Shown: piece after piece, positions 8,901 to 35,449 of the stretch
Layout of the letters: every line of letters begins with the position of its first letter
How positions within the stretch are numbered: the first letter of the stretch is position 1
Assembly: GCA_963821765.1 (NCBI GenBank)
Contig: CAWGFF010000010.1
Span: forward strand, 95,400 to 159,399
Length of the DNA: 64,000 bases
Direction: 5' to 3'
DNA from: an uncultured Acidobacteriota bacterium
GTDB taxonomy: Bacteria; Acidobacteriota; Terriglobia; Acidiferrales; UBA7541
Program-made: the position numbers and the translations under genes
Notes under the pieces: generated by a model
What the model was told of the DNA's origin: nothing
Seen by the model: only the letters and a program-made list of their open reading frames with translations
Databases searched by the model: none

Positions 8901-11900
8901 TCTGTCCCGGGACAACGGCGACGTGCACGTTCACGATCACCGCGGACCAAGAGCTTTCGGCGACGTTCAACAACGGGACGGGAAATTTCGCGTTGAGCGT
9001 GATTCCTGGCGGCACGGCGACGGGCGGCGGGATTGTGCTCGGGAACATCGGCGGGACGGGAACGGCGATTGATTGCACATTGAGTGGGACGACGACGCCG
9101 ACGGGAGTTTGCTCGCAGAACGTATTGAGCGGATCGATCGAGACGCTTACGGCGGAGCCGAACGCGACATCGAATTTCACGAGTTGGACCGGACCGTGCG
9201 TGATACCCACAGGACAACCGGCAAAGTGCGTGGTGACGATGGGCGCGGCGCACACTGTTACGGCGCTGTTCACGGCGCAGACGAGCAGTTTTACGGTGGC
9301 ATTGACTGGAAACGGGACGTTGACGAGCACTTCGACGCCGACGGTCACGCCGGAAATTAACTGCGCGAATCCGGCGCCGCCGAGTGCGTGCTCGACGAAT
9401 TTTGCGTCGGGGACGCAGGTGACTTTAACGGCGACGCCCGCGACAGGGTACTCGTTTACGAATTGGACGGCGGGACCGTGCGCCGGAGCGACGAATCCGT
9501 GCGTATTTACGGTGAGCAGCACCAGCCCAACGAGCGCGACGGCGTTATTTACGATAAACACTTATCCGCTGACGGTGAATCGCGCGGGGACTTTGGGAGG
9601 AACGGTCGCGAGCAACGTAGTGAATGGGCTAGGCGGCAGCATCAGCTGTGGGCCGGCCGCGGGGATTCAGGGTTGCTCGGTGACTGCGACGTATAACACG
9701 CCGGTCATTTTGACGCAAACGCCGCCTTCGGGTGGCGGTTTTGGCGGGTGGAGCGGGACGCCGACTGCGTGCACTGTGGGAGCTACGACTTGCACTTTCA
9801 ATATGCCCGCGGGACTGGAAACAGTGACGGCGACGTTTACGGCGGTTTCCGGAACCGACGCGGATCTGTCGATCGGGATACTCGCACCGGGGAGCGTAGC
9901 GCTCGGCGGGAGCGTGCCGTACACAATCACGGTGACGAACAATGGTCCCGCGAACGCAACGGGCGTGACCATGAGTGATCCAGTGCCGAATGGACTGCAA
10001 CCCATCGGGATCTCTGGACCGAGTTGTGAAATGCAACTAAACGTTGGCACTGAGCAATACACCGTGTTCTGCAACATTGGCAATCTAGCCAGCGGCGCCA
10101 GCTCAACGATAACGTATAGCGTGACGCCTACGGCGACGGGAGGCTTGACGAATACGGCGACCACTGGGGGAACGCAAACGGATCCGAACACGGCCAACAA
10201 TTCAGCGACGGTGAATACGTCAGTGACATCGGGGACCTCGAGCCCGGTGATCGTGGCGGACTTTAATGTGAACGGCGAGGGCGACGAGGACAAACAGCGA
10301 GTGGATGGAACGAGTAAGCCGCTGCAGGTGACGTTGACGAACACCTCGACCACGCTGACCGTGCACGTCAGCGGCGTTACACCGACTGCTCCGTACACAG
10401 CGACGACCGACTGCGGGACGCTAGCGCCTGGAGGGACCTGTCACGTGTTTATCGGTTTCAAGCCGGCCAGTGTTTGCCAGGACGAAACGGACCAAATAGT
10501 GACAGTGAACGACGATGATCCAGGCGGCAATTTCCAGATGACGATACACGGCTGGGGCGCAGACAGCGTGATCAAGGTGGATGATCTTACGGATTCCACA
10601 CTAACGCCGACGGCGCTGGCGCAGAGCCTAGTGGGGGCGGGAGTAGCAATCAGCAACGTTAAGTACACGGGCGCGCTCCGTGCCGCGGGCACGTTTACAA
10701 GCAGCTCGAATGTTCTGGGCTTTACGAATGGAATCGTGCTGAGTTCAGGATCGGCACGCAACGTAGCAGGCATGAATTGTGAAAACGGAATGTCGGTGGA
10801 CAACGGCGAGCCAGGCGATGCGGATCTGAACACGATCGTGGGTAAGGGAAATATCACGAACGACGCATCGGTATTGGAATTTGACTTTGTGCCGACGAGC
10901 TCGACGATCAGTTTCCAGTATGTGTTCGGTTCGGAGGAATACCCGGATTTCATCGGGTCGTTTAACGACGTGTTCGGATTCTTCCTGACGGCGCCGGGCG
11001 GCGCGCCAGTGAATCTGGCGCTAATTCCCGGGACGGACCTGCCCGTATCAATCAACGATGTGAATGACGGCAATACGACCGTCACTCCCCCGATACCTCC
11101 GACAAATCCTCAGTTCTACGTGAACAACCAGGTGCAATTCTCGGCAACCGGACCGTTGCCGCCTGTGGATACCGAGCTAAATGGGTTGACCACGGTGCTA
11201 GGGGCGCAAGCTACGGTAACTCCCGGGTTGACGTATCACATCAAGCTCGCAGTGGCCGACGCGAACGACTTCGCGCTGGATTCGAACGTATTTGTGCAGG
11301 CGGGAAGCTTGTCGAGCGCGAGCGTAACGGCGAACCCGACGTCTCTGGCTTTCGGAAATCAAGCACAGGGGACGACGAGCGCGTCGCAGCCGGTGGTGAT
11401 TACGAATGTGGGCACGACCACGGTGACGATCACGGGAATTGCGGCGAGCGCGAATTTCGGCGAGAGCAACGCTTGCCCGACAACTCTTGCGACCGGCACG
11501 GGCACGGGATCGAGCTGCACGGTGAACGTGACGTTCACGCCGACGGCTACGGGGACACTGACGGGGACGGTGACGGTGACGTACACGAGCACGGGCAGCG
11601 CGACGCCGCAAACGACGACTATCACGCTGACGGGGACGGGAACGCCGGCGACGGGCGGGACGATTTCGGTTACGCCGACATCGTTGACGTTCGGCAGCCA
11701 GGCGGTGGGAACGACGAGCGCGGCACAGACGGTGACGGTGTCGAACACGGGTGGGACTACGGTGACGTTCACGAACATTGTGACGAGCGGGGATTTTGCG
11801 GGGGCGACGCTGGCGCAATGCCCGAGCATCGCGGTGGAAGGTACGCCTTGCACGTTTCAGATTACGTTCAAGCCGACGGCGACGGGAACGCGCAACGGGA

Positions 11901-12847
11901 CGATCACATTTACGGATAATGCGACGGGAAGTCCGCAGACGGTGACGCTGACGGGGACAGGCACGCCGGGAACGGCGACGTTGACGGTGACGCCGAGCAG
12001 TTTGGTGTTTGGATCGCAAGCGTTGACGACGACGAGCGCGCCGTTGAGCGTGACGGTAACGAACACGAGCAGCGCAGCAGTGAATTTCGCGGGCTTTACG
12101 ACGAGCGGAGCGGATGCGGAGGATTTTGGAGTGCCGCTGCCGAACACGAGTTCGGGATGCAGTGCGGCGGGGACGTTGGCGGCGGGAGCGAGTTGCACGA
12201 TCAGTGTGGTATTCACGCCGCAGGCGAATGGGACGCGGACGGCGACGTTGAATATTGCGGATAATGCGACGGGAAGTCCGCAGATGGTGGCGTTGAGCGG
12301 GACGGGAGTGACATCGCAAGTGATTATAGCGGTGGCGCCGGGAGGGAGTACGACGGCGACGACGGTGTCGGGAGGGACGGCGTATTACGGATTGGTGATT
12401 AGCGGAGCGCCGGGAGTGACGGGGACGGTGCAGCTGGGATGCATACCGTCGTCGGTGTTGATAACGTGCAAGGTGATACCGAGTACGGTGACGTTGACGG
12501 GCGGGGCAACGGAAGTGGCGTTTGCGATACAGACGTACTGCCAGGGGAGTACGACGGCGACGGGAATGGTAGCGCCCATGGTCGGAGGAAGTGGCGGGGG
12601 GATTGGGTGGATGCTGGTTTCGATGGTTTTCGGTGGAGCGGTGTGGACGATGCGGAGGAAGCGGCGAGTGGCAATGACGTTTGCGACGTTGTTGCTGGTG
12701 GCGTTGGGAATGGCAGCTTGCAGCAATAGTTTGCCGCAGGGGCCGAACGGGGCGACGCCGGCGGGGACATATACGTTGTCGTTGACGACGACTTTGAATG
12801 GACAGACGCAGACATTGAATAACTTTTTGACGCTGGTGGTGAAGTAG
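5960..12847 (+). CDS. giant mosaic secreted surface protein (SBBP-type N-region, Big_2, InlB-B-repeat-like x4, DUF11, choice-of-anchor-L-like, choice-of-anchor-D-like modules, C-terminal TM/Arg-cluster signal)
   Basis: ORF 5939..12847. ATG 5960 is preceded by GGAGG (5951-5955), with signal peptide MSLRRSLRRASGFLVLGICMQIASVL. Motifs seen: PLFFEANEGQTDPSVRFLTRSSGY (N-domain typical of SBBP propeller proteins), LAVGGTQQFSALGLYGDG...TATITA (Big_2), four TATPxxGxxFxxW...C.F modules, ADLSIG...YTITVTNNGPANATGV (DUF11) and GDADLN...ISFQYVFGSEEYPDFIGSFNDVFGFFL (choice-of-anchor L). The tail is identical to gene 1. Confidence 0.9.
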   Translation: MSLRRSLRRASGFLVLGICMQIASVLPQGGLSAQTAPKAGDGSGANAQEQQKIAASAIKMPLFFEANEGQTDPSVRFLTRSSGYTMFLTPTETVLVEGKNGIVSDDKFGKGLTAFRADAKNAKQSVLRMELLGANAAPDFQGLQQLPGKVNYLIGQDQAAWHTNVALFSEVQVAKVYPGVDLLFHGDQRQLEYDFVVAPGADPGRIGFRIRGAKKIEIDANGDLILHTADSEFEMRKPVIYQGEGANRSEVQGRFVLSAKNQVRFELGPYDHAEKLVIDPVIFFSSFLGGAGLDLLQAVAVDTSTPGAPKVYVTGFTDDIATFPEPSAKVGNPSTAAGEENVFVAEIDATKTGSPSLVYLTFIGGSTPFTALGGTVCGTSSGFLALDTSQGAASVEPVIGGLTLCSDYPGTVLNPVTATGTDASATVVTRLKPGGAAIDASVLLGGNGLMATGYVFTDAVGNVLLTGATGSTNLPTSAGAYATEFNNGATGAFDDCYTVKLARSNLTPGYFSYLNVGASSVSGQAAGCGGVIDSANENILYLGGDTESSVAFSGAAAGVLGFQSTFHGTIDSFVMKLDTSVSGFGALKYATYVGGGGKTDVQTGAVELGTGVVALAGRTTSNSTTNAPDIVTANALSGGSSNPAAASTGGQVGFLVVMDTTKSGLASLLSGSYFGGTSGQDEIRALAYDPLVLSGYNIIVGGDTASTDFPVLHPFQGSLVGTQDAFVSSFLITPTSAQTLFSSYIGAGGVSIGGVSVAENSIAAIGVDTGHAMYVGGNASSGSYFDSTTPTTTVNGFQTTCTSCSGTVPEPDAIIFALKTAPGAALSTVSAFPASVGTLAVGGTQQFSALGLYGDGTFQDLTSEATWNSSNTGVLQIGSTGLATAVGSGTATITAQFGGLTSAGVLVTVSGGASTFKVQLVLEGTAYGTVTDSTGAIDCTNTTAQGATGTCTANFNTNAQVTLTATPGSGSVFGGWGISNVCPGTTATCTFTITADQELSATFNNGTGNFALSVIPGGTATGGGIVLGNIGGTGTAIDCTLSGTTTPTGVCSQNVLSGSIETLTAEPNATSNFTSWTGPCVIPTGQPAKCVVTMGAAHTVTALFTAQTSSFTVALTGNGTLTSTSTPTVTPEINCANPAPPSACSTNFASGTQVTLTATPATGYSFTNWTAGPCAGATNPCVFTVSSTSPTSATALFTINTYPLTVNRAGTLGGTVASNVVNGLGGSISCGPAAGIQGCSVTATYNTPVILTQTPPSGGGFGGWSGTPTACTVGATTCTFNMPAGLETVTATFTAVSGTDADLSIGILAPGSVALGGSVPYTITVTNNGPANATGVTMSDPVPNGLQPIGISGPSCEMQLNVGTEQYTVFCNIGNLASGASSTITYSVTPTATGGLTNTATTGGTQTDPNTANNSATVNTSVTSGTSSPVIVADFNVNGEGDEDKQRVDGTSKPLQVTLTNTSTTLTVHVSGVTPTAPYTATTDCGTLAPGGTCHVFIGFKPASVCQDETDQIVTVNDDDPGGNFQMTIHGWGADSVIKVDDLTDSTLTPTALAQSLVGAGVAISNVKYTGALRAAGTFTSSSNVLGFTNGIVLSSGSARNVAGMNCENGMSVDNGEPGDADLNTIVGKGNITNDASVLEFDFVPTSSTISFQYVFGSEEYPDFIGSFNDVFGFFLTAPGGAPVNLALIPGTDLPVSINDVNDGNTTVTPPIPPTNPQFYVNNQVQFSATGPLPPVDTELNGLTTVLGAQATVTPGLTYHIKLAVADANDFALDSNVFVQAGSLSSASVTANPTSLAFGNQAQGTTSASQPVVITNVGTTTVTITGIAASANFGESNACPTTLATGTGTGSSCTVNVTFTPTATGTLTGTVTVTYTSTGSATPQTTTITLTGTGTPATGGTISVTPTSLTFGSQAVGTTSAAQTVTVSNTGGTTVTFTNIVTSGDFAGATLAQCPSIAVEGTPCTFQITFKPTATGTRNGTITFTDNATGSPQTVTLTGTGTPGTATLTVTPSSLVFGSQALTTTSAPLSVTVTNTSSAAVNFAGFTTSGADAEDFGVPLPNTSSGCSAAGTLAAGASCTISVVFTPQANGTRTATLNIADNATGSPQMVALSGTGVTSQVIIAVAPGGSTTATTVSGGTAYYGLVISGAPGVTGTVQLGCIPSSVLITCKVIPSTVTLTGGATEVAFAIQTYCQGSTTATGMVAPMVGGSGGGIGWMLVSMVFGGAVWTMRRKRRVAMTFATLLLVALGMAACSNSLPQGPNGATPAGTYTLSLTTTLNGQTQTLNNFLTLVVK

Positions 12848-15534: not shown

Positions 15535-15599
15535 GGGATTGCGGGTTCTGATATACTTCGCGGCCTCATGAGGTTCGCTTGATTGGAAAGGGTGGCGGG

Positions 15600-17735
15600 A
15601 TGAAATTCCATAAAGCATTTGTGTTCGTGGTGATGTTGGCGGCGATGGCTTGCGGCGCGGCGCGGGCGCAGCATCCGGTGACGGTGGGGAATGCCGGCGC
15701 AGCCGCCGCGGGCGGGCGCACTTTGGTGGTGGATGATTATTTTCGGATTAAGGAAGTGGGGGATCCGCAGATCAGCCCAGACGGGAAGTGGGTGGCGTAT
15801 ACGGTGGAGACTGCGAGTCTGAAGGATGACAAGAACCGGAAGCGGATCTGGATGGTTCCTACCGGCGGAGGGGCGGCGATCGCGCTGACGGATGAAAATG
15901 AATCGTCTTCGCATCCGCGTTGGAGTCCGGATGGAAAATATCTGGCGTTTTTATCGGCCCGCGCGGGAAGCGGCAACGATGATGAAGAGAAGGGCAAGAA
16001 ACAGGTATGGATTCTGAACCGCGAAGGGGGCGAGGCGCAGCAGCTGACGGACACGATCCAGGACGTGGATAGTTTCGCGTGGGCGCCGGGAAGCGACCGG
16101 CTGGTGCTGGTGTTGCAGGATGCGTCGCCGGAAGAAATCGAGGCGGCGGCGAACAAGGAAAAGGGCAGCAAGGCGAAACCGAAGCCGCGGCCGTGGGTGA
16201 TTGACCGGATGCACTTCAAAGAGGATGAGATCGGGTATCTGGACCGGCGGCGGACGCATTTGTATGTGTTCACAATTGCGGATCACAAGAAGCGGCAAAT
16301 TACCGCGGGCGATTACGATGACGATGATCCGGCATGGTCACCGGACGGAATCAAGATCGCGTTTGCGAGCAACCGGTCGGCCCCTGAACCGGATTTGAAT
16401 TACAACAAGGACATATGGGTGGTGGAGGCGGGCAACACCGATCAGGGAAAGTCACTGGTGCAGGTGACGACGAACGTGGGGGCGGAAGAGGCGCCGGCGT
16501 GGTCACCGGACGGGAAGTGGATCGCATACACCACGCAGCTGGAGCCGGAACTGTTTCAATATTCTACGATTCAGATTGCGGTGTCGCCGGCGACGGGCGG
16601 TGCGGCGAACGTGCTGACGCGCAAGCTGGACCGCAATTCGACGATTCCGCGATTTTCGGCGGATGGGAAATGGATTTATTTTATTGCAGACGACGACGGC
16701 ACACAGAATTTACTGCGCGTGCCGGCGGCGGGCGGAGAAATTACGCGCCCGATTGGCGGGCGGAAGATGGTGGAAGCGTATTCGCTAGGCGCGGATGGCA
16801 CGGCCGTGGCGACGGTGGGAGAGCTGACGCATCCGGCCGAGCTCTACGCGGTGTCACCGGGCGGGGAATTGCGGAAATTGACGAGCGTGAATGACGCGTT
16901 GATGGCGGAATTGCGTTTGCCGACGGTGGAGTATGTGCATTTCAAGAGCAAGGACGGAACCACCGTCGCGGGATATTTGTACAAACCGCCGGATTATCAA
17001 CCGGGCGTGAAATATCCGACGATTTTGAAACCGCATGGCGGGCCGGTGTGGGCTTACTACGCGGAATTTAATTTCGATCCGCAGCTTTATGCAGCGAATG
17101 GGTATGTGGTGCTAACGCCGAATCCGAGAGGGTCTTCCGGTTACGGCGAGGATTACTGCAAAACGATTTTCGCGGATTGGGGACACAAGGATTTTGAGGA
17201 TGACATGGCGATGGTGGATTACGCCGTCGCGCAGGGGATCTCGGATCCCGAGAAATTGGGAGTGGGAGGTTGGTCGTACGGCGGGATTTCGACGAATTTC
17301 ATAATTGCGCAGACTACTCGATTCAAGGCGGCGATTTCGGGAGCTGGGGAATTCTTGTACATCACCAATTGGGGGCACGATTTGTATTCGCGCGATTGGG
17401 AGTACGAGCTGGGGTTGCCGTGGAAGAATCGCGCGCTGTGGGAGAAACTTTCGCCGTTCAATCGCGTGCTGCAGATTACGACGCCCACTTTGGTGATGGG
17501 CGGGGACGTGGATTGGAACGTTCCGGTGATTAATGGGGAGCAGCTGTACCAGAGTTTGCGGAGGTTGGGAGTGCCGACGCTTTTGGTGGTGTATCCGGGG
17601 GAATATCACGAGTTTTCGCGGCCGTCGTTTATTAAGGACAGATACGAGCGGTATTTATTTTGGTATGGGCATTATGTGAAGGGGGTGGGGCCGGCGGTGC
17701 CGCCGGTGGTTGTACCGGGGAAGGGTGCGGAGTGA
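15600..17735 (+). CDS. S9 family serine peptidase (prolyl oligopeptidase/acylaminoacyl-peptidase type) with TolB-like beta-propeller
   Basis: ATG 15600 and signal peptide MKFHKAFVFVVMLAAMACGAARA. Repeated SPDGKW[VI]AY propeller motifs. Catalytic GGWSYGG, GGDVDWNVP and GEYHEF. Confidence 0.85.
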   Translation: MKFHKAFVFVVMLAAMACGAARAQHPVTVGNAGAAAAGGRTLVVDDYFRIKEVGDPQISPDGKWVAYTVETASLKDDKNRKRIWMVPTGGGAAIALTDENESSSHPRWSPDGKYLAFLSARAGSGNDDEEKGKKQVWILNREGGEAQQLTDTIQDVDSFAWAPGSDRLVLVLQDASPEEIEAAANKEKGSKAKPKPRPWVIDRMHFKEDEIGYLDRRRTHLYVFTIADHKKRQITAGDYDDDDPAWSPDGIKIAFASNRSAPEPDLNYNKDIWVVEAGNTDQGKSLVQVTTNVGAEEAPAWSPDGKWIAYTTQLEPELFQYSTIQIAVSPATGGAANVLTRKLDRNSTIPRFSADGKWIYFIADDDGTQNLLRVPAAGGEITRPIGGRKMVEAYSLGADGTAVATVGELTHPAELYAVSPGGELRKLTSVNDALMAELRLPTVEYVHFKSKDGTTVAGYLYKPPDYQPGVKYPTILKPHGGPVWAYYAEFNFDPQLYAANGYVVLTPNPRGSSGYGEDYCKTIFADWGHKDFEDDMAMVDYAVAQGISDPEKLGVGGWSYGGISTNFIIAQTTRFKAAISGAGEFLYITNWGHDLYSRDWEYELGLPWKNRALWEKLSPFNRVLQITTPTLVMGGDVDWNVPVINGEQLYQSLRRLGVPTLLVVYPGEYHEFSRPSFIKDRYERYLFWYGHYVKGVGPAVPPVVVPGKGAE

Positions 17736-17922: not shown

Positions 17923-19479
17923 TTATTTTGATGCGCTGTCTATCAGGGCGGCGATGTTGGACTTCAGTTTGGTTAGATCTTCTTCGTGCAGGTACATCAT
18001 GTGGCCCGCGCCGTAGTATTCGAAGTGGATGTTGCTGCGCAGGTTTCCGGGCAGGAAGAGATGGTCCATGGTGTATTCAGTGGCGTAGAACGGCGTGGCC
18101 ATATCGTAGAAGCCGTTTTCGACCTGGACTTGCAGGTGGGGATTGGTCATGAGCGCCTGAATCAGGTCGCCGGAGACGTTTGCTGAGCCGGGGAAAAAGC
18201 CGCCGCCTTGCGGGCCGCGATGTTTCCAATCCCAATTGCCCCCAACGTCGCCGCTAAGAGCTTCGTAGGATCTTTCTTCCGTGACTTTTAATTCTTCGCG
18301 GGCGTAGCTGTTGAATGCGGCGGTGAAAGCGCCGCGGACCGCGGTGTAGGACGGATCCTCCTCGGCAAACTCGGTGAGCATGTCGTAAGTGGGCATGGTG
18401 TAGCGTGCGTCGTAACGGCCGGTGGTGACGCCGTGGCTGCGCATTAATTCCACATTGAATTGCGGAAGGTTAACGCGCAAGTCGGCTTTCAGGAGGTAAT
18501 CCTCGCTGAGTCCGGTGAAGTGCGAGAGTTTTTTTGCGACGTCTGATTTTTCGGCGGGAGTGATGTTGGTGCCTTTCATCAGAGCGGGGGCGTACTCGGT
18601 GGCGGCGAATTTGCGGGCTTCGGTGAGGAAGGCCGGGACGTCGGACGGCGGATCCGCGAGCGCTTTTTGATATGCCGCGGTGGCGGCGTAGCTGGGGAGG
18701 TAGAGGATGAACGGGAGATCGTCGCCGGGATTGAACGAAATGGTGCCGAGATTGAGGACGGAAGAGATAAGTACGATGCCGTTGATGTAAATGCCGTCGT
18801 GCTGCTGGAGATAATTGCCGAGCGCGGCGGAGCGGAAGGTGCCGTAACTTTCGCCGATCAGAAATTTTGGAGAATTCCAGCGGTTGTTGCGATTGAGATA
18901 GATGTTGATGAACTGCGCGAACATTTTTACGTCTTGATCCACGCCCCAGAAATCCTTGTTCTGCGCTTTGCCGACGGCGTGGCTGAAGCCGGTGCCGACG
19001 GGATCGATGAAGACCATGTCGGTTTTGTCGAGTAGGGAATTGGTGTTGTCTTCGATTTTGTACGGCGCGGGTGGAGTGGCGGCGTGGTCGGCATTGACGA
19101 CGCGACGCGGGCCGAAGGCGCCCATGTGCAACCAGATGGATGCGGAGCCGGGGCCGCCGTTGTAGAGGAAAGCGATGGGGCGCTGGGAAAAATCCTTGGT
19201 GTCGCTGCGCGTGTAGGCGGTGGAGTAGATGAGCGCGGTGGGCTCGCCTTTTTCGTCTTTCAAGAGGGTGGTGGAGGCGACGGCTTTGTAGGCGATGGAT
19301 TGGCCGTTGATTTTGATGGTGTGATCGCTGGGCCAGGCTTCTTCTTTGGGAGGATTGGCGTCTGGGGCTTTGGCGTCTGCTGCGGCGGAGGGCTTGGCAT
19401 CTTTCGGCGGTTCTTGGGCTATGGCGCTGGTGGTGAGTAAAAGCATTGCTGCCGCACAGATGGCTAGGAAGTTCTTCAT
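17923..19479 (-). CDS. S10 family serine carboxypeptidase, secreted
   Basis: 518 aa with a signal peptide. Motifs seen: NGGPGSASIWLHMGAFGP, IGESYGT and C-terminal GAGHMMY. Confidence 0.8.
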   Translation of the reverse strand: MKNFLAICAAAMLLLTTSAIAQEPPKDAKPSAAADAKAPDANPPKEEAWPSDHTIKINGQSIAYKAVASTTLLKDEKGEPTALIYSTAYTRSDTKDFSQRPIAFLYNGGPGSASIWLHMGAFGPRRVVNADHAATPPAPYKIEDNTNSLLDKTDMVFIDPVGTGFSHAVGKAQNKDFWGVDQDVKMFAQFINIYLNRNNRWNSPKFLIGESYGTFRSAALGNYLQQHDGIYINGIVLISSVLNLGTISFNPGDDLPFILYLPSYAATAAYQKALADPPSDVPAFLTEARKFAATEYAPALMKGTNITPAEKSDVAKKLSHFTGLSEDYLLKADLRVNLPQFNVELMRSHGVTTGRYDARYTMPTYDMLTEFAEEDPSYTAVRGAFTAAFNSYAREELKVTEERSYEALSGDVGGNWDWKHRGPQGGGFFPGSANVSGDLIQALMTNPHLQVQVENGFYDMATPFYATEYTMDHLFLPGNLRSNIHFEYYGAGHMMYLHEEDLTKLKSNIAALIDSASK

Positions 19480-19546
19480 TTACGCTCCGATGTCTTGATT
19501 TCGCGCCCCAATTATCGCGGAGGGATTCTACGCACGCGGGTTGAGG

Positions 19547-19672
19547 GAAGTCAAACGGGCGAAGGGCCTCTTACCGCGGAGACGCAGAGGTCGCAGAGAA
19601 AGACCAAGGCGAGCCGACAATAAGGCTGACGTCGTGGCAAGCTGGGGCGCAGCGAGCAGCGCCCCTACCGAG
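19547..19672 (+). repeat. composite intergenic repeat (AAGTCAAA / ACCGCGGAGACGCAGAGGTCGCAGAGAAAG / hairpin-CTAC)
   Basis: gggaagtcaaacggg...ttaccgcggagacgcagaggtcgcagagaaag...ggggcgc agcgagca gcgcccc tac. It is related to the units at 17752-17893, 25743-25850 and 33516-33664. Confidence 0.55.
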
Positions 19673-19725: not shown

Positions 19726-21189
19726 TTAATTGCACGGTGGATTCGTGAACGTTAGGGTGACTGCGCTGGGGTCATCGGATGCGTTGGCGGCGTCATCAGT
19801 GACGGCAGAAATTTTTTGGGTGTCGGAATCTATGCGGGCGGGGATGGTGCAGGTGGTTTGGCCGTGATGCTGGCTTAGGCGTTGAGGATCGAGATCTTCC
19901 CAGGCGGAAAATGTGTAGGCGGCGGATTGGAGCAGCGTGAATTCGTAGAGAGTGTCGGAGATTTTGCGGGCGGCGGGGTTGTCGCCTTTTTCGGCTTGGG
20001 CTGTGACGGTGACTTCGCCGGGCGGGCGGCCGCCTTCCCATTTTAGTTGAACTTTTACGCTGCGAGTGGGATAGCCGTTGCGGAGTTTGATGTTGGCATT
20101 GAGAATTTGCTGGCCGTCTTTTACTTTTATGAATTTAGCTTCCGACTGTTCGGGCTCGCTGGGATAAAAAGTGCGCGGGAAGGGGGAGTTGGGGTCGAGG
20201 CGATTCATGCGATTGAAGACGAGAAGATATTCGCCGGGGCCGATGTGATCGAATTCGAATTTGCCGTCTTGGCCTTGAAAGCCCCAGAGGCCGGGCTGGG
20301 CGGGATCGAAGCGTTCGGCGCGATAAAGCTCGACGGAAGCGATCTGGAGTGATTTTCCATTGGGACCGAGAACGCTGCCGCGAATTTTTCCGGTGGGCAG
20401 GGCGTTGACGTTGTACTCGTAGCAGGCGCCGGAGGGAATTCTGAATGGGGGCAAGCCGCCTTTCAGAGTTTTCTGCGAGAACTCGAAGCGCGCGGGGAGA
20501 TCGGCGGTGTAAACATATTCGCCGGCGTGAACGTCGTAGAAAGAATAGACGCCGTCGGGGCCGGTGCTGGAGGAGAAACGATCATCTTTAGAGCGCAATT
20601 TTAATTTTATGTATGGGAGAGGATCTTCAGGATCGTCGGTGGGCGCGAGGAGCGGCGGATCGGCGCGGCGCAGGACACCGAAGACGGAAGCTACGCGGTC
20701 GTGATTGCGCATGGCGCGCAACTGCGGAAGGATCGCGCGGCCTTCGCTGGCGGGGCGCGTCTGGCCGCAGATGACGGCGAAGAGGCGGCCTTCGGTTTCC
20801 TGTTGGGTGAAGACGATGTACTGCTCGCCCTTCTTGAAATAGTAGCCGCAGTCGGCGTCGTCGCCGCCGGAGAAGACGTCAATGTCCGCGGTGTTGGGGC
20901 CGGCGAATTTTTCGTCAATGTGAAAATGATAGCGAGTGATGGGCGCGACGGTTTGGGGGGTGGCGCCGGGATTTGCGTCGTTGGTGTTGGCTGCGGCAGT
21001 GGCGGCTTCGGCGGAGGTGGCGTCGGGCGCGACGGCGGCGACTTCAGTGACAGTGCCGAGGAAAACCACGTCGTCAGATTGCAGGCCGGGACATCTTCCG
21101 GGAGGCTCTTTGGAACAGGTGCAAGCGTGAAGCACGGAGGGAATGAAAAAGAGCATCAGCGCGGCGGCCAAGAATGAACGTGGAATCAT
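19726..21189 (-). CDS. secreted protein: TIMP/NTR-like N-terminal domain fused to carboxypeptidase-regulatory-like beta-sandwich domains
   Basis: The signal peptide MIPRSFLAAALMLFFIPSVLHA is followed directly by CTCSKEPPGRCPGLQSDDVVFLGTV..., then ITRYHFHIDEKFAGPNTADIDVF..DADCGYYFKKGEQYIVF...GRLFAVICG. The pattern parallels TIMP N-domains (CTCxP...C..SD.VI...V; RYEIK..K...G; ADIR.VY; CGY.F; EFLI.G; L....C). Later, GKIRGSVLGPNGKSLQIASVELY is a CarboxypepD_reg-type motif. Confidence 0.6.
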   Translation of the reverse strand: MIPRSFLAAALMLFFIPSVLHACTCSKEPPGRCPGLQSDDVVFLGTVTEVAAVAPDATSAEAATAAANTNDANPGATPQTVAPITRYHFHIDEKFAGPNTADIDVFSGGDDADCGYYFKKGEQYIVFTQQETEGRLFAVICGQTRPASEGRAILPQLRAMRNHDRVASVFGVLRRADPPLLAPTDDPEDPLPYIKLKLRSKDDRFSSSTGPDGVYSFYDVHAGEYVYTADLPARFEFSQKTLKGGLPPFRIPSGACYEYNVNALPTGKIRGSVLGPNGKSLQIASVELYRAERFDPAQPGLWGFQGQDGKFEFDHIGPGEYLLVFNRMNRLDPNSPFPRTFYPSEPEQSEAKFIKVKDGQQILNANIKLRNGYPTRSVKVQLKWEGGRPPGEVTVTAQAEKGDNPAARKISDTLYEFTLLQSAAYTFSAWEDLDPQRLSQHHGQTTCTIPARIDSDTQKISAVTDDAANASDDPSAVTLTFTNPPCN

Positions 21190-21411
21190 GAATATCTATC
21201 GTACCTTGTGAGGCGCGGGGAAATCGAGGATTCGTGTGAAATTTTTTTGGAAATGTGTGGAGTGATGGCGCTCGGAAGGAGTGGGCTATTTTGGTACACT
21301 GGGGGCCGTTTGCAGAAAACGAAGTTCCCGAGAATCGATTTGCGGACGGGCCGATCTGTGCGCGGATTCGCGCGTGGGGATGCGAGCAGGATAAGGGAGC
21401 AATTTACGAAC

Positions 21412-23004
21412 ATGGGAAAGATTATGGGGACTTTGATTGCGATCCCGGTGTTGTTTTGCGCGGCGGCGGGAGCGCAGCAATCTGCGCCGGCGTCTGCGCA
21501 GCAGGGGAGCCAGTCTATCTACAACGTGACGGTGGTAGGGAAAACCGTAACGGCGGTGAGCTATCAGCACCGCAGCGGCTCGACGATGATCGGATTCCAG
21601 GGAACGCCGCTGCTGCCGCTGGCGAAGGGCGACGCGAAGGTGGACAGCAAGCAGGGATCGATCGTGGTGACCGCGAGTTTCAAAAATATGCAGCCGGCGC
21701 AGAAATACGGGAAGGAATATTTGACGTACGTGCTATGGGCGATCACGCCGGAGGGCAAACCAAGTAACCTGGGGGAGTTGCTTCTCGATGGCGACAAGAG
21801 CAAGTTGACGGCGACCACGAATTTGCAGACCTTTGGAATGATCGTGACGGCGGAGCCGTACTTTGCGGTGAGCATGCCGAGCGACGTGGTGGTGCTGGAA
21901 AACGTAGTGCGGGCGGACACAGTGGGAACGTCGGAGCAAGTGACGGCGAATTACGAATTGATGCAGCGCGGCGGGTATACGTACGACATAACGAAGGCGC
22001 GGGAACCGATCACGGAATTTTCCCCGAAGGTGCCGCTGGAGATTTACGAAGCGCGGAATGCGGTGTCCATTGCGCAGAGCGCGGGGGCGGACACGCTGGC
22101 GCCGGATGCTTTTCAGAAGGCGGTGAGTTCGCTGAGGAACGCGGACAGTTTGCTGGCGAAGAAAGCGAACAGGAAAGAAGTGATCGCGGCGGCGCGCGAT
22201 GCGGTGCAGACCGCGGCGGATGCGCGCGCAATCGCCGTGCAACGCGCGGCGCAGCAGAAAGCGGCAGCAGAACAGGCGGCGGCGCAGGCGGCGGTGGCCG
22301 CAGCGGACGCGAAACAGAAAGAGGAAGCAGCGGCACGGCAGCAGGCTGAAATTCAGAAATTGCAAGCGGAACGGGATGCGGCGCAGGCGGCTGCTGCTCG
22401 AGCACAGGCGGACGCGGCGCGCGCGCAGGCTGATGCAGCGGCGTTGGCAGCGCAGCAACAAGCACAGGCCGCGCAACATCAGGCCGAATTGGCGCAACAG
22501 CAGGCGAAGGCGGCGCAGGATGCTGCGGCCAGGTCGGAAGCAGAGAAGCAGGCTTTGCGGGCGGCGCTGCTCGATCAGTTCAATCGGGTTTTGCCGACGA
22601 CAGATACGCCGCGCGGTTTGCAGGTGAATATGGCGGACGTGTTGTTTGCATTTGGGAAATATGAGCTGCAGCCGCCGGCGCGCGAGGCTTTGGCGAAATT
22701 TTCCGGGATCGTGCTGGCGCATCCGGGACTGCATTTATCGGTGGAGGGATACACGGATAGCGTGGGCAGTGATGCGTTCAATCAAACGCTTTCGGAGCAG
22801 CGGGCGAATGCGGTGCGGGATTATTTGATACAGCAGGGGCTGGATCCGACTTCGATTACGGCGACGGGATTCGGGAAGTCGAACCCGGTGGCGAGCAATG
22901 ATACGGCGACGGGACGGCAGCAGAATCGTCGCGTGGAGATTATTATTTCGGGCGAAGTGATTGGGACGAAGATTGGGGCGCCGAGCGCGCCGCCGCAGCA
23001 GTAG
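21412..23004 (+). CDS. OmpA-family protein with DUF4398-like region and long Ala/Gln-rich coiled coil
   Basis: I prefer ATG 21412 (MGKIMGTLIAIPVLFCAAAGAQQ signal). The C-terminal OmpA domain reads VLFAFGKYELQP...VEGYTDSVGSDAFNQTLSEQRANAVRDYL...NRRVEIIISG. Confidence 0.85.
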   Translation: MGKIMGTLIAIPVLFCAAAGAQQSAPASAQQGSQSIYNVTVVGKTVTAVSYQHRSGSTMIGFQGTPLLPLAKGDAKVDSKQGSIVVTASFKNMQPAQKYGKEYLTYVLWAITPEGKPSNLGELLLDGDKSKLTATTNLQTFGMIVTAEPYFAVSMPSDVVVLENVVRADTVGTSEQVTANYELMQRGGYTYDITKAREPITEFSPKVPLEIYEARNAVSIAQSAGADTLAPDAFQKAVSSLRNADSLLAKKANRKEVIAAARDAVQTAADARAIAVQRAAQQKAAAEQAAAQAAVAAADAKQKEEAAARQQAEIQKLQAERDAAQAAAARAQADAARAQADAAALAAQQQAQAAQHQAELAQQQAKAAQDAAARSEAEKQALRAALLDQFNRVLPTTDTPRGLQVNMADVLFAFGKYELQPPAREALAKFSGIVLAHPGLHLSVEGYTDSVGSDAFNQTLSEQRANAVRDYLIQQGLDPTSITATGFGKSNPVASNDTATGRQQNRRVEIIISGEVIGTKIGAPSAPPQQ

Positions 23005-23064: not shown

Positions 23065-23769
23065 TTATCGCGCTGGGTGGTCTGAATGCGACCAGAGGCG
23101 GAAGCCACCTACGAAGGCGTTTTCGTTGCTGCCTCGGCGGGCGCCGGGCGGGAGATTTTTTAGCTTTTTGGCGTTGCCGCCGCCCAGGACTACGTAGTCG
23201 GCTTCGAGAGCTGTTTTCAATTTGTCGGTGACTTTGACAAGCTCTCGCCGCCATTTTTTCTTTCCATATTTTTCCAGTCCGCGAATGCCGAGGTAATCCT
23301 CGTACGTTTTCCCATGTTTGTAGAAAAGGTGCGCGAGTTCCATGGGCTCGAGGACGCCGTCAATCACCATCGCAGAGCCCAGGCCGGTGCCGAGGCCGAG
23401 AAAAAGCATGCGTCCGCCTTTGTAACTGCCGAGGGCTTGCATGCTTGCGTCATTGATAATTTTTGTGGGATGGCCGAAGGCTTTGCGGAAATCGAAACCC
23501 ACCCAGCCGCCGCCGAGGTTGTGAGGCTCGCGGAGCGGATGGTTGTTGATGACTGGGCCGGGATAGCCCATAGCGATGCAATCGTATTTCCAGGAGCGGG
23601 TGGCTTTTTTTACGGCGCGAACCATTTTGGCGGCGGTCATGGAGAGGCTGGAGGGAATTTTTACGGGGTCCTTTTGACCGGTCATCAAGAGCTTGACGTG
23701 AGTTCCGCCGACGTCAATTACCAGGATGCGGTGTGGCTTGTGTTGCGGATTTGGGCGACGAGTCGTCAT
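23065..23769 (-). CDS. ROK-family sugar kinase (polyphosphate/ATP glucokinase-like)
   Basis: ILVIDVGGTHVKL, FGHPTKIINDASMQALG, LGLGTGLGSA. The ORF track starts it at 23904, but ATG 23769 (MTTRRPNPQHKPHRILVIDVGG) fits the family length better. The start is uncertain. Confidence 0.7.
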   Translation of the reverse strand: MTTRRPNPQHKPHRILVIDVGGTHVKLLMTGQKDPVKIPSSLSMTAAKMVRAVKKATRSWKYDCIAMGYPGPVINNHPLREPHNLGGGWVGFDFRKAFGHPTKIINDASMQALGSYKGGRMLFLGLGTGLGSAMVIDGVLEPMELAHLFYKHGKTYEDYLGIRGLEKYGKKKWRRELVKVTDKLKTALEADYVVLGGGNAKKLKNLPPGARRGSNENAFVGGFRLWSHSDHPAR

Positions 23770-23925
23770 GAGCAGATGGCCTCGTTGGAGAAGGGTCGAA
23801 GGTATATCCGGGGGCAGTGGATAGTCAACGGTGGGCGATTGGGAATGGAGGCCGGTGAAGGCAATGTAGGAAGGGCTCAGGATAGAGCTAGCGTTTTTCC
23901 GCATATTATATACAATCCATTTCCT

Positions 23926-25728
23926 ATGAAATACAAACTGCTGGCGAAGTCCTCCATTTTGGCGGTTTTGCTTTCTCTTACCTTAATATCCGTGGGATTT
24001 GCGGCGGGTGGCGATGGCGGTGGCGGCGTCTGGGCCGAGCGTCGGGCCGCAGGCGGTGGCAGCGACGTCGGGGACGAATTTCAATCACCGCCGAGCGAAA
24101 TGCGAGCACTCGCGGAGAGGTACGACGCGGATCGCACCCTTTTGTTGCGCTCGTATCGGACGCCGCTATCGCCGGCGGTACTGGATCGCATGCAAAAGTT
24201 CTACGCAGGGTGGCAGACGGAAATAGAGAAGGTGGATTTCGACAGCATGCATCAGGACGGGAAGATTGATTACATTTTACTGAAGAACACGCTGAACCAC
24301 GAACTACACGGGATCGAATTGCGGCGCAAGGAAATGGCGGAGACGGCGCCGCTGCTGCCGTTTGCTCCGACGATTGTGGGGCTGGCAGAAGCTTTGCGGC
24401 ACATGGAAAACATGGATGCGGCGAAGGCGGCAGCGACGCTGGACGGATTGAACAAGCAGATCGACGAAGCGAAAAAATCATTGAGTTCGATGAAGACTTC
24501 GAAGTATGTGGCCAATCGCGCGGCGATCGAGACGGACCAACTGAGGCAGTCGCTGAAAGATTGGTTCACTTTTTACAATGGGTACGATCCGCAGTTCACT
24601 TGGTGGACGGGCGTGACGTACAAGGCGGTGGACACGAACCTGGAAAGTTACGCGGCGCAAGTGCGCGAGCAGATCGTGGGGATCAAGCCAGGGGACAAGA
24701 CCACGATTGTGGGAAATCCGATCGGGCGCGACGCGCTGATCAGCAGCTTGCGTTACGAAATGATTCCTTACACTCCGGAAGAATTATTGGTGCTGGCGGA
24801 CCGCGAATACGCGTGGTGCGAGGCGGAGATGAAACGCGCTTCGCGGGAGATGGGGGACGGGGACGACTGGCACAAGGCGCTAGAGCAGGTGAAATCGGAT
24901 TATGTGCCGCCGGGAAAACAGCCGGAGTTGATCCGGGACCTGGCGCTAGAGGCGATTGGGTATGTGGAGAAGCACGACCTGGTGACTGTGCCGGAACTGG
25001 CGAGCGAATCGTGGTGGATGGAGATGATGACGCCGGAGCGGCAGCTAGTGAACCCGTTTTTTACGGGCGGGGATCGCATCAGCGTTTCTTATCCGACGGA
25101 CGGGATGACGTTCGAGCAGAAAATGATGAGCATGCGCGGAAATAATATTCATTTTGCGCGGGCGACGGTGTTTCATGAATTGATTCCGGGGCATGAGCTA
25201 CAGGGATTCATGGCGCGGAGGTATCGGACGTGGCGGCGGCCGTTTGATACTTCGTTTTATGTGGAGGGTTGGGCGCTGCATTGGGAAATGCTTTTGTGGG
25301 ACATGAATTTTGCGCGCTCGCCGCAGGACCGGGTGGGGATGCTGTTCTGGAGGATGCATCGGGCGGCGCGAATTATGTTTTCGTTGAATTTTCATCTGGG
25401 AAACTGGACGCCGCAGCAGTGCGTCGATTTCCTGGTGGACAAGGTGGGGCACGAGCGGGAGAACGCCACGGCGGAGGTGCGGCGATCTTTTGCGGGAGAT
25501 TATTCGCCGCTGTACCAGGCTGGTTACATGCTGGGTGGATTGCAGATTGGGGCTTTGCACAAGGCGCTGGTGGAACCGGGGAAGATGACGGAGAGGCAGT
25601 TTCATGATGCGGTGTTGAAGGAGAATGCGATTCCGATTGAGATGATTCGGGCGGATTTTATGAATGAGAAATTGACACGCGATTATGTGCCGCATTGGAA
25701 ATTTTATGGGGATTTGAGCGCGAAGTAG
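23926..25728 (+). CDS. DUF885-family protein (putative secreted metallopeptidase)
   Basis: ATG 23926 (MKYKLLAKSSILAVLLSLTLISVGFA signal). The longer track ORF from 23314 overlaps the ROK gene antisense. The FHELIPGHELQ motif is typical of DUF885. Confidence 0.75.
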   Translation: MKYKLLAKSSILAVLLSLTLISVGFAAGGDGGGGVWAERRAAGGGSDVGDEFQSPPSEMRALAERYDADRTLLLRSYRTPLSPAVLDRMQKFYAGWQTEIEKVDFDSMHQDGKIDYILLKNTLNHELHGIELRRKEMAETAPLLPFAPTIVGLAEALRHMENMDAAKAAATLDGLNKQIDEAKKSLSSMKTSKYVANRAAIETDQLRQSLKDWFTFYNGYDPQFTWWTGVTYKAVDTNLESYAAQVREQIVGIKPGDKTTIVGNPIGRDALISSLRYEMIPYTPEELLVLADREYAWCEAEMKRASREMGDGDDWHKALEQVKSDYVPPGKQPELIRDLALEAIGYVEKHDLVTVPELASESWWMEMMTPERQLVNPFFTGGDRISVSYPTDGMTFEQKMMSMRGNNIHFARATVFHELIPGHELQGFMARRYRTWRRPFDTSFYVEGWALHWEMLLWDMNFARSPQDRVGMLFWRMHRAARIMFSLNFHLGNWTPQQCVDFLVDKVGHERENATAEVRRSFAGDYSPLYQAGYMLGGLQIGALHKALVEPGKMTERQFHDAVLKENAIPIEMIRADFMNEKLTRDYVPHWKFYGDLSAK

Positions 25729-28209: not shown

Positions 28210-30573
28210 ATGGATCGGCGAGAATTTCTGCGGGATTTGGGAGTGACGACTGCGGCGCTGGGGTATGTGGCGACTGGGGAGCGAGTCGCAGCTGCTGAGC
28301 GGGCAAAGGCGGCAATGTTTGATCCGACGATGGAGTCGGGTCTGAACTCGGGAGCGGCACCGGACGTTGCGGGTCACACTTTAGTTTGCGAATTCAAAAT
28401 TGGCGCGACTGGGTGGAAGGTTTACGAAGATTTGCGAGCGCGCGACGGGGCGATCACTTTTATTTCTGCGGCGGGAGCGTCGCGAGTTTTGCCGAAGAGC
28501 ACGGAGGCGACTTTCGCGGAAACTGATCCGCCATATTTGGGATTGAAGCTGGCGGACATTGGAATGGCCGGGCCGGATTTACTGGCAGACAAGCTTTTGC
28601 AGCATGGCGATCCGGATCCGGAGCAGGTGAAATCGGCGGCGCCGCCGCAGGGCACGGCGAAGGAGGAATCGCGCTGGCGATTGCCGTGGAATACATTTGT
28701 GGGAACGAAAGAATGCGCGGACACGATGCCGGTTTTTCCCGCGGGAAACACCAGGACTTACCATCCGGCGCAATATTTTCCGGAGATTACGAATGACGCG
28801 GCGAAAAAAAGATTTGAAGGGTTGATTGGCGGCTGGATGCCGGCGGTGCGCAAGGTGATGCCGAGTTCCGATGGCGCGTATGTGGAAGTGGTGGTGTTTG
28901 GAGACGTGGAGGCGCGCGACCGGTTCATCGTGCAGACCTGGCACCGCACGATGCGTGTGGAAAACGGGAAAGTGGCGATGGTGGTGTACGGGTACAGCTA
29001 TCCCGCATTTCCTCCCACGCGGGAAGATCCGAGCGCGGAGGAATTTCATCGCGCGCTGCTGGTGTTTGCGGCGTACTGGGAAAAACAGCTGCAGGATTTT
29101 GCGCCGGCTGCTTTGCCGGATGGCGCATGGGTGGATATGGCGAAGCACGCGTTCGCTAAGGAATTGATGGTACGGCCGGGCGGAGTGTATCCGAAGTATG
29201 GCGCGGTGGATCGCGATTATTACGGGCCGGAATACGACGGGTTCCAGGATATTTTCACGATGGCGGTGTATGCGAATCTGGAGTGGGGGCGATTCGATGC
29301 GGCGCGGGAGATTATTGATAATTATTTGACGGATTTCACGGACGCGAAGGGAATGATCAACATGCGCGGGCCGGAGACGGCGCAGTTCGGGCTGACGCTT
29401 TTCTTGCTGGCGCGTTATTTCCAATACACACAGGATGCGGCGCTGCTGGTGAAGCATCGCGAGAAGATTGTGGCGACGGCGGCGATTTTGACGGAGTTAC
29501 ATGATGAGAGTTTGAAATTGCCGAAGGATGACGTGGGTTACGGGATTATTCACGGGTGGAGCGAGTCGGATTCGTGTTTGCATCCCAAGCCGATGACTTG
29601 GTGGCTGCCTTATTTTGCGAACAACGCGTTTGCGGCGCGGGGATTGAAGGATATCGGCGGAGTGTGGCCGGCGATTCGGCCGGGCGAGGGAGTTGCGGCG
29701 GCAGCCTGGTTGAAGCGCAGCAAGGATTTGCAGGACGCGGTGATTGCGAGCATGCAGAAAAACGTGCGGCGCGACGTGACGCCAGCGTATATCGGACCTT
29801 TGCCGGGTACGACTTTGATGTTTCGCGAATCGCTGGAAAAAGAGTATCCCAGCCCGCAGCAGTGGGTGCATCGCGCTTATGCGGAGTTGCTGCAGCCGGA
29901 CGTGTTGCCCGCGGATTTGGCGAACACGGTGATTGATTGCATGCGGGCCTATGGCGGAACGACTTTGGGGGTGGTGGCGAATATTGAGCGGCCGCATCCG
30001 GAGGGTCGCGACATTCTGGGATTTATTTCGTATGGATACGCGCAGATGCTTTTGCGGTTGGATCGCGTGGAGGAGTATTTGCTGTTTCTTTACGCGCATC
30101 GTTATCACGATCACACGCGGGGGAGTTGGACGGCGGGCGAAGTTTCGGGAGTGGACGGCGATACCGCGCTATTTTGCATTCCGGCGCAGCAGACGATTCC
30201 TCTATTGGTGAGGTGGATGCTGGTGCTGGAGGATTCGGACGAGGACAGAATTTATTTTGGGAAGGGATTGCCGCGGGAGTGGGTGGCGTCGGGGAAAGAG
30301 ATACGGATTGAGGGCGCGCCGACGCGGTTTGGGAGGGTGAGTTTCAGTATGGCGGCGGATCGTGCTTCGCGAAAAGTGAATGCCAAAATTGATTTGATGA
30401 AGGCTGGCGGAGTGAAGGAAGTGCATTTGAAATTGCGGATGCCATCGGCGAACACGGTGCGGCGTGTGACAGTGAATGGGCGAGTGGTGGAGTTGGGTGG
30501 CGCCACTCGGGATACGGTGATTTTTCTGACGGACGGGGAAGAGCGGTTTGAGGTGGTTGGGGAATTTAGTTGA
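28210..30573 (+). CDS. uncharacterised Tat-exported 787-aa protein (possible alpha/alpha-barrel glycoside hydrolase; function unknown)
   Basis: Tat motif MDRREFLRDLGVTTAAL. Starts 54 bp after GH31 on the same strand. I recognise no family signature. Confidence 0.6.
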   Translation: MDRREFLRDLGVTTAALGYVATGERVAAAERAKAAMFDPTMESGLNSGAAPDVAGHTLVCEFKIGATGWKVYEDLRARDGAITFISAAGASRVLPKSTEATFAETDPPYLGLKLADIGMAGPDLLADKLLQHGDPDPEQVKSAAPPQGTAKEESRWRLPWNTFVGTKECADTMPVFPAGNTRTYHPAQYFPEITNDAAKKRFEGLIGGWMPAVRKVMPSSDGAYVEVVVFGDVEARDRFIVQTWHRTMRVENGKVAMVVYGYSYPAFPPTREDPSAEEFHRALLVFAAYWEKQLQDFAPAALPDGAWVDMAKHAFAKELMVRPGGVYPKYGAVDRDYYGPEYDGFQDIFTMAVYANLEWGRFDAAREIIDNYLTDFTDAKGMINMRGPETAQFGLTLFLLARYFQYTQDAALLVKHREKIVATAAILTELHDESLKLPKDDVGYGIIHGWSESDSCLHPKPMTWWLPYFANNAFAARGLKDIGGVWPAIRPGEGVAAAAWLKRSKDLQDAVIASMQKNVRRDVTPAYIGPLPGTTLMFRESLEKEYPSPQQWVHRAYAELLQPDVLPADLANTVIDCMRAYGGTTLGVVANIERPHPEGRDILGFISYGYAQMLLRLDRVEEYLLFLYAHRYHDHTRGSWTAGEVSGVDGDTALFCIPAQQTIPLLVRWMLVLEDSDEDRIYFGKGLPREWVASGKEIRIEGAPTRFGRVSFSMAADRASRKVNAKIDLMKAGGVKEVHLKLRMPSANTVRRVTVNGRVVELGGATRDTVIFLTDGEERFEVVGEFS

Positions 30574-32412: not shown

Positions 32413-32523
32413 ATTCTGAAAAAGCTTGAGATGATTCCTTCCGATCGAGATTAGGAGTTTACGCCCGGTTTGAATTTGGCGTTAGGCGTGGCGGCGCATC
32501 GCGTTTCAATCTATAGTCAATTC

Positions 32524-35398: not shown

Positions 35399-35449
35399 GC
35401 AGCGAGCCTCCTAATTCGAACTCGAGCCTGACAACGTTGCAGATTGCTG

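Follow-up and report, generated by a model that had tools for sequence, protein, structure and literature searches.

In complexes between animal tissue inhibitors of metalloproteinases (TIMPs) and matrix metalloproteinases (MMPs), the N-terminus of the inhibitor chelates the catalytic zinc and residue 2 occupies the S1′ pocket. Bacteria have protease inhibitors of their own: APRin of Pseudomonas and Inh of Erwinia are periplasmic and extend their N-terminal residues to the catalytic zinc of a metzincin, and ecotin of Escherichia coli acts as a shield in the periplasm, with no genetic linkage to a target protease. Here, we analyze a TIMP-like gene (positions 19726 to 21189, minus strand) in a 64,000-nucleotide stretch of DNA, hereafter the window, from an uncultured soil bacterium of the Acidobacteriota (contig CAWGFF010000010.1, positions 95,400 to 159,399). 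A preliminary description of this DNA, made from the letters alone, held that the mature N-terminus of the encoded protein mimics a TIMP or NTR metalloproteinase-inhibitor domain. That wording understates the relationship: profile, hhalign, Pfam and structure evidence indicate homology rather than convergence, and we consider it highly probable that the N-terminal domain of the window protein is related to the TIMP N-domain by remote homology and is not a convergent mimic.

A study of TIMP evolution treats the family as animal-only, with bacteria unmentioned (PMC4860685). In Listeria monocytogenes, the lipoprotein Tim (LMRG_00714; lipobox LTAC) is encoded next to the gene for its metzincin, Mtz, which cleaves Tim at about residue 50; a TIMP-like fold was predicted for Tim by Phyre2, without sequence similarity, and the authors found no record of bacterial TIMP-like proteins, in a paper that also covers APRin as a metzincin inhibitor (PMC8235301). 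The searchable literature on bacterial or prokaryotic TIMPs yielded nothing relevant on the present family, Listeria Tim being the only bacterial protein in it called TIMP-like. We found no description of the entire family, of its strictly kept N-terminal layout, of its predicted inter-domain third disulfide or of its spread across phyla. That such proteins are essentially uncharacterised, as first asserted, holds for experiments, with no functional study in the searchable literature, and fails for annotation: automatic pipelines assign PF00965 to some members, and the signal was thus in the databases before this work; two members already carry the Joint Genome Institute (JGI) name 'Tissue inhibitor of metalloproteinase'.

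Homology to the TIMP N-terminal domain

In the AlphaFold model of the N-domain, the predicted local distance difference test (pLDDT) score is 68 overall; 10-residue blocks of the β-strand core reach 78-93, and two core blocks stand at 64 and 67. Comparison of this model with the PDB by Foldseek places TIMP-2 (1br9) first, with E=5.6e-4 and a probability of 1.00, followed by TIMP-1, the NTR domain of PCPE, the C345C domains of complement C3 and C5, and agrin NtA. The full-length model (pLDDT 88.5; predicted template modelling score, pTM, 0.82) also has TIMP-2 as the best match for its N-terminal domain (E=6.3e-5, probability 1.00), at rank 16 of the list after pilin and adhesin matches to the C-terminal domains, and aligns with 2e2d_C at a root-mean-square deviation of 4.8 Å over 130 columns. 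With TIMP-2 as the best N-domain match of both models, the resemblance first read from the letters extends to predicted structure, and the N-terminal domain is modelled as a five-stranded OB-type barrel with a following helix, of the TIMP type.

The link to TIMPs is significant only at the level of the family profile and of structure, and not for the window protein alone. A single-sequence search of PDB sequences with the window protein gave no TIMP among its weak chance matches. Neither TIMP nor NTR is listed in a Pfam scan of the full-length protein, and an NCBIfam scan of the protein lists nothing. A profile of close relatives only (A2) recovered no TIMP from the PDB; weak matches in these PDB searches to the EAL enzyme Bd1971 and to norovirus 3C-like proteases were short, arose by chance and were discarded. 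A profile of 48 diverse members (A3) was required, which reached TIMP-2 (E=1.1e-6 and 1.5e-6) and TIMP-3 (E=0.011). Aligned by hhalign with four human N-TIMPs, A3 gave a probability of 96.3% and E=1.6e-9 over 100 columns, Cys1 to Cys1; of the four sequences used, that of TIMP-1 was checked, against PDB 1d2b (all 126 residues, 291.6 bits). Against the Pfam TIMP model (PF00965), 19 of the 48 members score at E<=1, the best at E=3.5e-7; against the Pfam NTR model (PF01759), none of the 48, the window protein included, does so. Eight of ten further relatives clear the PF00965 gathering cut-off of 23.1 bits, scoring 24.5-34.2 bits from model position 1-2. The TIMP half of the original TIMP/NTR assignment is accordingly significant for relatives and profile and weak for the window protein (E=0.24), and the NTR half finds no match in the 48 members.

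The protein is laid out as follows, with mature residues numbered from the predicted first cysteine.

19726..21189, minus strand: TIMP-like gene, whole open reading frame (ORF), a 487-residue precursor plus stop codon (19726-19728)
21124..21189, minus strand: predicted signal peptide MIPRSFLAAALMLFFIPSVLHA, residues 1-22, with Arg in the n-region, an uncharged core of 15 residues and L-H-A at -3 to -1
21115..21123, minus strand: Cys1-Thr2-Cys3, predicted mature N-terminus; C1 and C3 are invariant in alignments A3 and A4
20665..21123, minus strand: TIMP-like OB-fold domain, mature residues 1-153 (AlphaFold, Foldseek, hmmsearch E=1.1e-6, hhalign 96.3%)
21091..21093, minus strand: Cys11, near the position of TIMP Cys13, present in 36 of 37 full-length members
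20944..21039, minus strand: Ala/Thr/Pro-rich hypervariable insertion between β-strands 1 and 2, at the position of the TIMP A-B loop, with reduced pLDDT
20842..20853, minus strand: D-C-G-Y motif with invariant Cys92, aligned with TIMP-2 Cys72 (TIMP-1 Cys70)
20767..20769, minus strand: invariant Cys119, aligned with TIMP-2 Cys101 (TIMP-1 Cys99)
19729..20685, minus strand: three β-sandwich domains (CarboxypepD_reg or prealbumin-like), mature residues ~147-465 (Pfam PF13620 and PF17210, AlphaFold)
20422..20424, minus strand: invariant Cys234, at the end of the first β-sandwich, in 37 of 37 full-length members

All motifs quoted in the preliminary description, which had delimited the region as 20680-21189 (ORF residues 1-170), are present in the ORF and in the order claimed. 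The precursor begins with MIPRSFLAAALMLFFIPSVLHA, after which the mature part reads CTCSKEPPGRCPGLQSDDVVFLGTV; along the ORF the signal peptide is followed by CTCSKEPPGRC, SDDVVFLGTV, RYHFHIDEKFAG, DIDVF, DCGYYFKKGEQYIVF and RLFAVICG. In the alignment of A3 with TIMP-2, profile positions 1-100 pair with TIMP-2 residues 1-102, and C1, C3, C92 and C119 fall onto TIMP-2 Cys1, Cys3, Cys72 and Cys101. Six positions never vary across the 48 diverse N-domains (C1, C3, C92 within D-C-G-Y, F96, Y102 and C119), and at least 90% of these domains keep C11; Asp91 is found in 37 of them, and the loop ahead of Cys92 is Gly-rich. Six cysteines are invariant or nearly so, and many distant members have exactly six. 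The interval from C1 to C11 spans 7-12 residues, compared with 11 for TIMP Cys1-Cys13, and the spacing from C92 to C119 has a median of 26 residues, compared with 28 in TIMP-1 and TIMP-2. The segment between strands 1 and 2 ranges from 8 to 43 residues among the 48 members, and the Ala/Thr/Pro-rich insert of the window protein (20944-21039) varies in length and sequence even between close orthologues.

These positions suggest a TIMP-style pairing (Cys1-Cys70 and Cys3-Cys99 in TIMP-1), in which Cys1 is probably joined to Cys92 and Cys3 to Cys119. The third disulfide of the TIMP N-domain (Cys13-Cys124) is not found within the domain, there being no cysteine from C119 to C234. C11 and C234 are both missing from two monoderm members that have no β-sandwich; that they are missing together speaks for a Cys11-Cys234 disulfide, the third, which would link the barrel to the first β-sandwich. 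The complete set of TIMP disulfides is therefore not present within the domain; the predicted third partner cysteine sits in the first β-sandwich.

Behind the barrel, the proposed fusion to carboxypeptidase-regulatory-like β-sandwiches is borne out. The Pfam scan of the full-length protein has only CarboxypepD_reg/SdrD_B-type β-sandwich matches, in the C-terminal two-thirds, and PF13620 reaches 32.4 bits (cut-off 32.3), in two stretches; the full-length AlphaFold model contains three such domains, with pLDDT above 90. Foldseek likens this C-terminal part to tandem Ig-like pilin and adhesin domains. A specific kinship with B. anthracis TIE or with pilins, the top full-length Foldseek matches, was rejected, the resemblance being that of generic tandem Ig-like domains with a template modelling (TM) score of ~0.2.

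The family extends well beyond the window. An exhaustive hidden Markov model (HMM) search of 1.84 billion cluster representatives with an N-domain profile of 14 sequences returned 2,907 matches with E<=1e-3, of which 272 reached E<=1e-10 and 25 reached E<=1e-30, and the matches listed align mostly to the domain core and not to the low-complexity insert. A word-seeded search found 39 close relatives, the named ones being hypothetical proteins of Acidoferrales/Acidiferrales, and a look-up of the exact window sequence gave no match. Among GTDB species-representative genomes (one per species), profile A2, which reached only close Acidobacteriota, identified 181 stretches that encode a close relative, nearly all from Acidobacteriota metagenome-assembled genomes (Acidiferrales, Terriglobia). 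A tblastn search of 'plasmid' records with a short family member added proteins of 179 residues in Bacillus sp. N5-665 (locus L094, 5950-6489, plus strand) and of 230 residues in Nonomuraea gerenzanensis (locus L095, 5902-6594, plus strand); the family HMM aligns with these two from profile position 1, at 65 and 55 bits, respectively. The two records, although filed as plasmids, are as long as entire chromosomes (5.5 and 11.9 Mb) and are scarcely annotated. The family is present, at least, in Acidobacteriota, Bacillota and Actinomycetota. Its Bacillus and Nonomuraea forms comprise a signal peptide, CxC, a four-cysteine TIMP-like domain and a C-terminal transmembrane anchor, with no β-sandwich. 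Complete proteins of 241-256 residues consist of a signal peptide, the N-domain and one β-sandwich, their last cysteine being the C234 equivalent, and this architecture is the minimal diderm unit.

The predicted mature N-terminus and its likely function

The window signal peptide satisfies the -3/-1 rule of signal peptidase I, the cysteine following directly on V-L-H-A. With His at -2, the site fails both lipobox patterns that we applied, the strict [LVI][ASTVI][GAS]C and a permissive one of the PROSITE PS51257 type, each ending at the +1 Cys. Among 148 members with a complete N-terminus, Cys1 lies at residue 23 (median); position -1 is Ala in 122 and Gly in 15, position -3 is Ala, Leu, Ser or Val, and position -2 is frequently Trp, Arg, His, Asp, Glu or Gln, with Arg, Glu, Gln or Trp in the close orthologues. 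When the patterns were applied to 190 members, 180 (95%) conformed to the -3/-1 rule and 187 had an uncharged core of at least eight residues, whereas 17 fitted the strict and 49 the permissive lipobox (9-26%). The monoderm members (Bacillus, Nonomuraea) have CxC directly after the signal peptide and are anchored by a C-terminal transmembrane helix although a lipidated Cys1 could have served, which argues for signal peptidase I. The cut immediately before Cys1 that had been predicted at the outset is thus also predicted for nearly all of the 190 members, and cleavage by signal peptidase I to give a free Cys1 is the best-supported reading of these sequences for the window protein and its relatives.

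By analogy with TIMPs, the most likely function of the protein is tight-binding inhibition of a metalloprotease through the free N-terminal cysteine, a reading towards which we lean without holding it firmly. In the exported protein, signal peptidase I would cut after Ala22, so that Cys23 would become residue 1 with a free α-amino group. The TIMP-type OB barrel (residues 1-153), sharing its ancestry with the animal TIMP N-domain, would present Cys1-Thr2-Cys3, together with the loop before Cys92, as a ridge, and this ridge would enter the active-site cleft of a zinc endopeptidase, where Cys1 would chelate the catalytic zinc through its N-terminal amino and carbonyl groups. The hypervariable A-B loop may tune specificity, and the β-sandwich stalk, or the transmembrane helix in monoderms, would serve as a spacer or tether in the cell envelope. 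The protein could then play an ecotin-like role, constantly shielding the envelope from metalloproteases, whether foreign or made by the cell itself; such a role is favoured because no protease gene is linked to the family and its contexts are housekeeping-like.

An inhibitor is favoured because the features on which the TIMP mechanism depends are those most strictly constrained. The strictest constraint falls on the zero spacing between the signal-peptidase site and Cys1, kept in three phyla and two architectures, on Ser or Thr at position 2, and on the cysteines that pin residues 1 and 3. Of the 148 members, 117 have Ser (68) or Thr (49) at position 2 of the mature protein, and 14 have Ala. 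We know of no reason for such constraint but a functional free N-terminus.

Several observations weigh on the other side. First, taken singly, the window N-domain (precursor residues 23-175) scores 11.6 bits against PF00965 (E=0.24), below the cut-off. Second, position 2 is Asp, Glu or Lys in some members, and the loop preceding Cys92 reads Gly-Gly-Asp, compared with Ser/Ala-Val/Leu in TIMPs. Third, no metzincin or HExxH protease was found in the window or beside the family genes examined: HExxH is absent from ORFs of at least 250 residues in the 64-kb window, and the metzincin motif HExxHxxGxxH from ORFs of at least 200 residues in the window and in the loci covered by the six-frame ORF set. 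Bacterial inhibitors are frequently paired with their protease, and most NTR-fold domains, such as netrins, complement C345C and agrin NtA, are non-inhibitory. The broader proposal, that this is a large, old bacterial family of genuine TIMP-type inhibitors acting by free-Cys1 zinc chelation as standing envelope shields, is put forward tentatively, as a possibility that we would stop short of calling probable.

The alternative that survives best is a non-inhibitory module of the TIMP/NTR fold, a protein- or glycan-binding OB head on a β-sandwich stalk with an envelope or adhesin-like role, in which Cys1 would come first merely because a structural disulfide opens the domain. The presence of the PCPE, C3/C5 and agrin domains among the Foldseek matches is consistent with such a module, as are the pilin- and adhesin-like character of the C-terminal part, the lack of a genetically linked protease in the contexts examined, and a weak match of the Bacillus member to Pfam NTR. 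We nevertheless judge both the module and its account of Cys1 unlikely: the 48 members divide 19 to none between PF00965 and PF01759 at E<=1, Ser or Thr is kept at position 2, and the absence of any spacer before Cys1 in three phyla and two architectures is something for which a purely structural cysteine cannot account.

A periplasmic metal binder is a distinctly improbable alternative. Here, Cu, Zn or another metal would be bound by the free thiols of CxC, perhaps with Asp91, on an OB scaffold like that of the copper chaperone CusF, an idea suggested by the CxC motif, the conserved Asp beside Cys92, the OB fold itself and the generic OB-fold proteins among the Foldseek matches; the cysteines, however, are even in number and stand at TIMP disulfide positions, the compartment to which the protein is exported is oxidising, and no metal-homeostasis genes lie nearby in the contexts examined. 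Least credible of all is a lipoprotein processed by signal peptidase II, with a lipid-modified Cys1 whose blocked thiol and amino group would allow no TIMP-like chelation, since, for all that bacterial lipoproteins are typified by a Cys at +1, that some close relatives (e.g., ..ALLA before the Cys) are among the 49 members with a permissive lipobox and that Listeria Tim, the sole published bacterial 'TIMP-like' protein found, is a lipoprotein (PMC8235301), the window protein fits neither pattern because of its His at -2, 74% of members fail even the permissive one, with R, E, Q or W at -2 in close orthologues, the cysteine that would pair with Cys1 is invariant and stands where it does in TIMPs, and the monoderm members carry a C-terminal transmembrane anchor; a lipoprotein identity was rejected on the lipobox counts (17-49 of 190).

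Inhibition by the TIMP mechanism, the function that we favour, would have consequences beyond this locus. The family keeps the features of TIMPs that are critical to mechanism, namely a predicted free Cys1, a Ser or Thr as residue 2, and a pair of disulfides that would fix the ridge. If its members are inhibitory, they would form a new class of bacterial metalloprotease inhibitors, and the inhibitory mechanism of TIMPs would be no metazoan invention, having either predated animals or crossed between domains of life; the origin of the TIMP/NTR fold would be seen in this light. Such proteins would also offer small, stable scaffolds for the engineering of metalloprotease inhibitors and would point to a form of protease defence in soil Acidobacteria that has so far gone unrecognised.

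Genomic surroundings

In the window, the TIMP-like gene lies among genes for an S9 prolyl-oligopeptidase family protein (15579-17735), an S10 carboxypeptidase family protein (17923-19479) and a DUF885 protein (23314-25728), with an OmpA-family protein and a ROK kinase as further neighbours. Among 80 close relatives, S9 accompanies the gene in 57, DUF885 in 50, S10 in 49 and OmpA in 37, a partial synteny that is expected because these relatives come from related genomes. The S9/S10/DUF885 arrangement was found only in close Acidiferrales relatives and was absent from the distant contexts examined, some of which are contigs of just 2-3 kb with little flanking sequence. Distant members adjoin arginine-biosynthesis genes, a group of enolase, phosphoglycerate mutase and heptosyltransferase, or HtrA-like serine proteases, and others adjoin CarboxypepD_reg proteins or unrelated genes.

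The S9 and S10 enzymes are serine peptidases and not targets of TIMPs. Since they are serine enzymes and no ORF of at least 250 residues in the window has an HExxH motif, we give the peptidase neighbourhood no weight and are unable to name a cognate protease. A functional link to S9, S10 and DUF885 was rejected, their synteny being confined to close relatives and none of them being a metzincin. The secreted-peptidase neighbourhood to which the preliminary description drew attention is there, with all three families as claimed, and is not informative. A sigma-70-like promoter match (10 of 12 positions; 19525-19554, minus strand) lies in the 247-bp gap that separates the TIMP-like gene from the S10 gene downstream of it, and this promoter-like site suggests that the S10 gene is transcribed separately; a single operon of the TIMP-like gene and S10 is unproven.

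Some other features of the window were recorded in passing. The OmpA-family protein (21208-23004, plus strand) is divergent from the TIMP-like gene and has a long Ala/Gln/Glu-rich, coiled-coil-like region before its OmpA domain; its true start is likely internal, at MGKIMGTLIAIPV. Two ORFs of 1,456 and 2,302 residues (672-5042 and 5939-12847, both plus strand) are probably giant surface proteins and carry NHL/teneurin-like repeats, Ig-like domains of the ASH/Cep192/HYDIN type, DUF11 and DUF7948. Three paralogous FG-GAP / UnbV_ASPIC proteins of 577, 589 and 577 residues are clustered at 33665-39082 and bordered by two TPR proteins (32470-33516 and 39181-40395), and two ORFs of 787 and 594 residues (28210-30573 and 30628-32412, both plus strand) have no Pfam match at E<=1e-3. 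At one distant locus (L091, 4291-8003 and 11050-12555), the family gene stands amid multi-domain CarboxypepD_reg and FG-GAP proteins, resembling the content of the window.

Comparison with known inhibitors and folds

Among the described systems to which the family can be compared, APRin/Inh and ecotin have unrelated folds; APRin and Inh are encoded in the operon of their protease, and ecotin targets serine proteases. The NTR/C345C domains (PF01759) and agrin NtA have an OB-type fold in common with the family and are among its Foldseek matches; they differ in being internal or C-terminal, in having no free Cys1 and in being mostly non-inhibitory. Listeria monocytogenes Tim is, like the present proteins, bacterial, exported and predicted to have a TIMP-like fold. 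The family described here is set apart from Tim by its lack of a linked protease, its predicted signal peptidase I site at Cys1 and its TIMP homology at the sequence level.

The N-terminal inhibitory domain of the animal TIMPs (TIMP-1 to -4; PF00965, MEROPS I35) is a further point of comparison. Unlike TIMPs, the present proteins are bacterial, have an identity to them of ~14-21% and, in the case of the window protein, score under the Pfam cut-off. The C-terminal TIMP domain, with its three further disulfides, is lacking, and in its place the window protein has three CarboxypepD_reg-like β-sandwiches. The predicted partner for the third disulfide lies in the first of these sandwiches and not ~25 residues past the Cys99 equivalent, and a Gly-rich loop with Asp precedes the Cys70 equivalent. 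Like TIMPs, the family has Cys-Ser/Thr-Cys directly after the signal peptide, a third early cysteine near Cys13, and an OB barrel followed by a helix, with a variable loop at the A-B position; and the pattern of [F/Y]-x-G, CG[Y], a hydrophobic strand, Gly-x-Leu and Cys runs in the same order in both.

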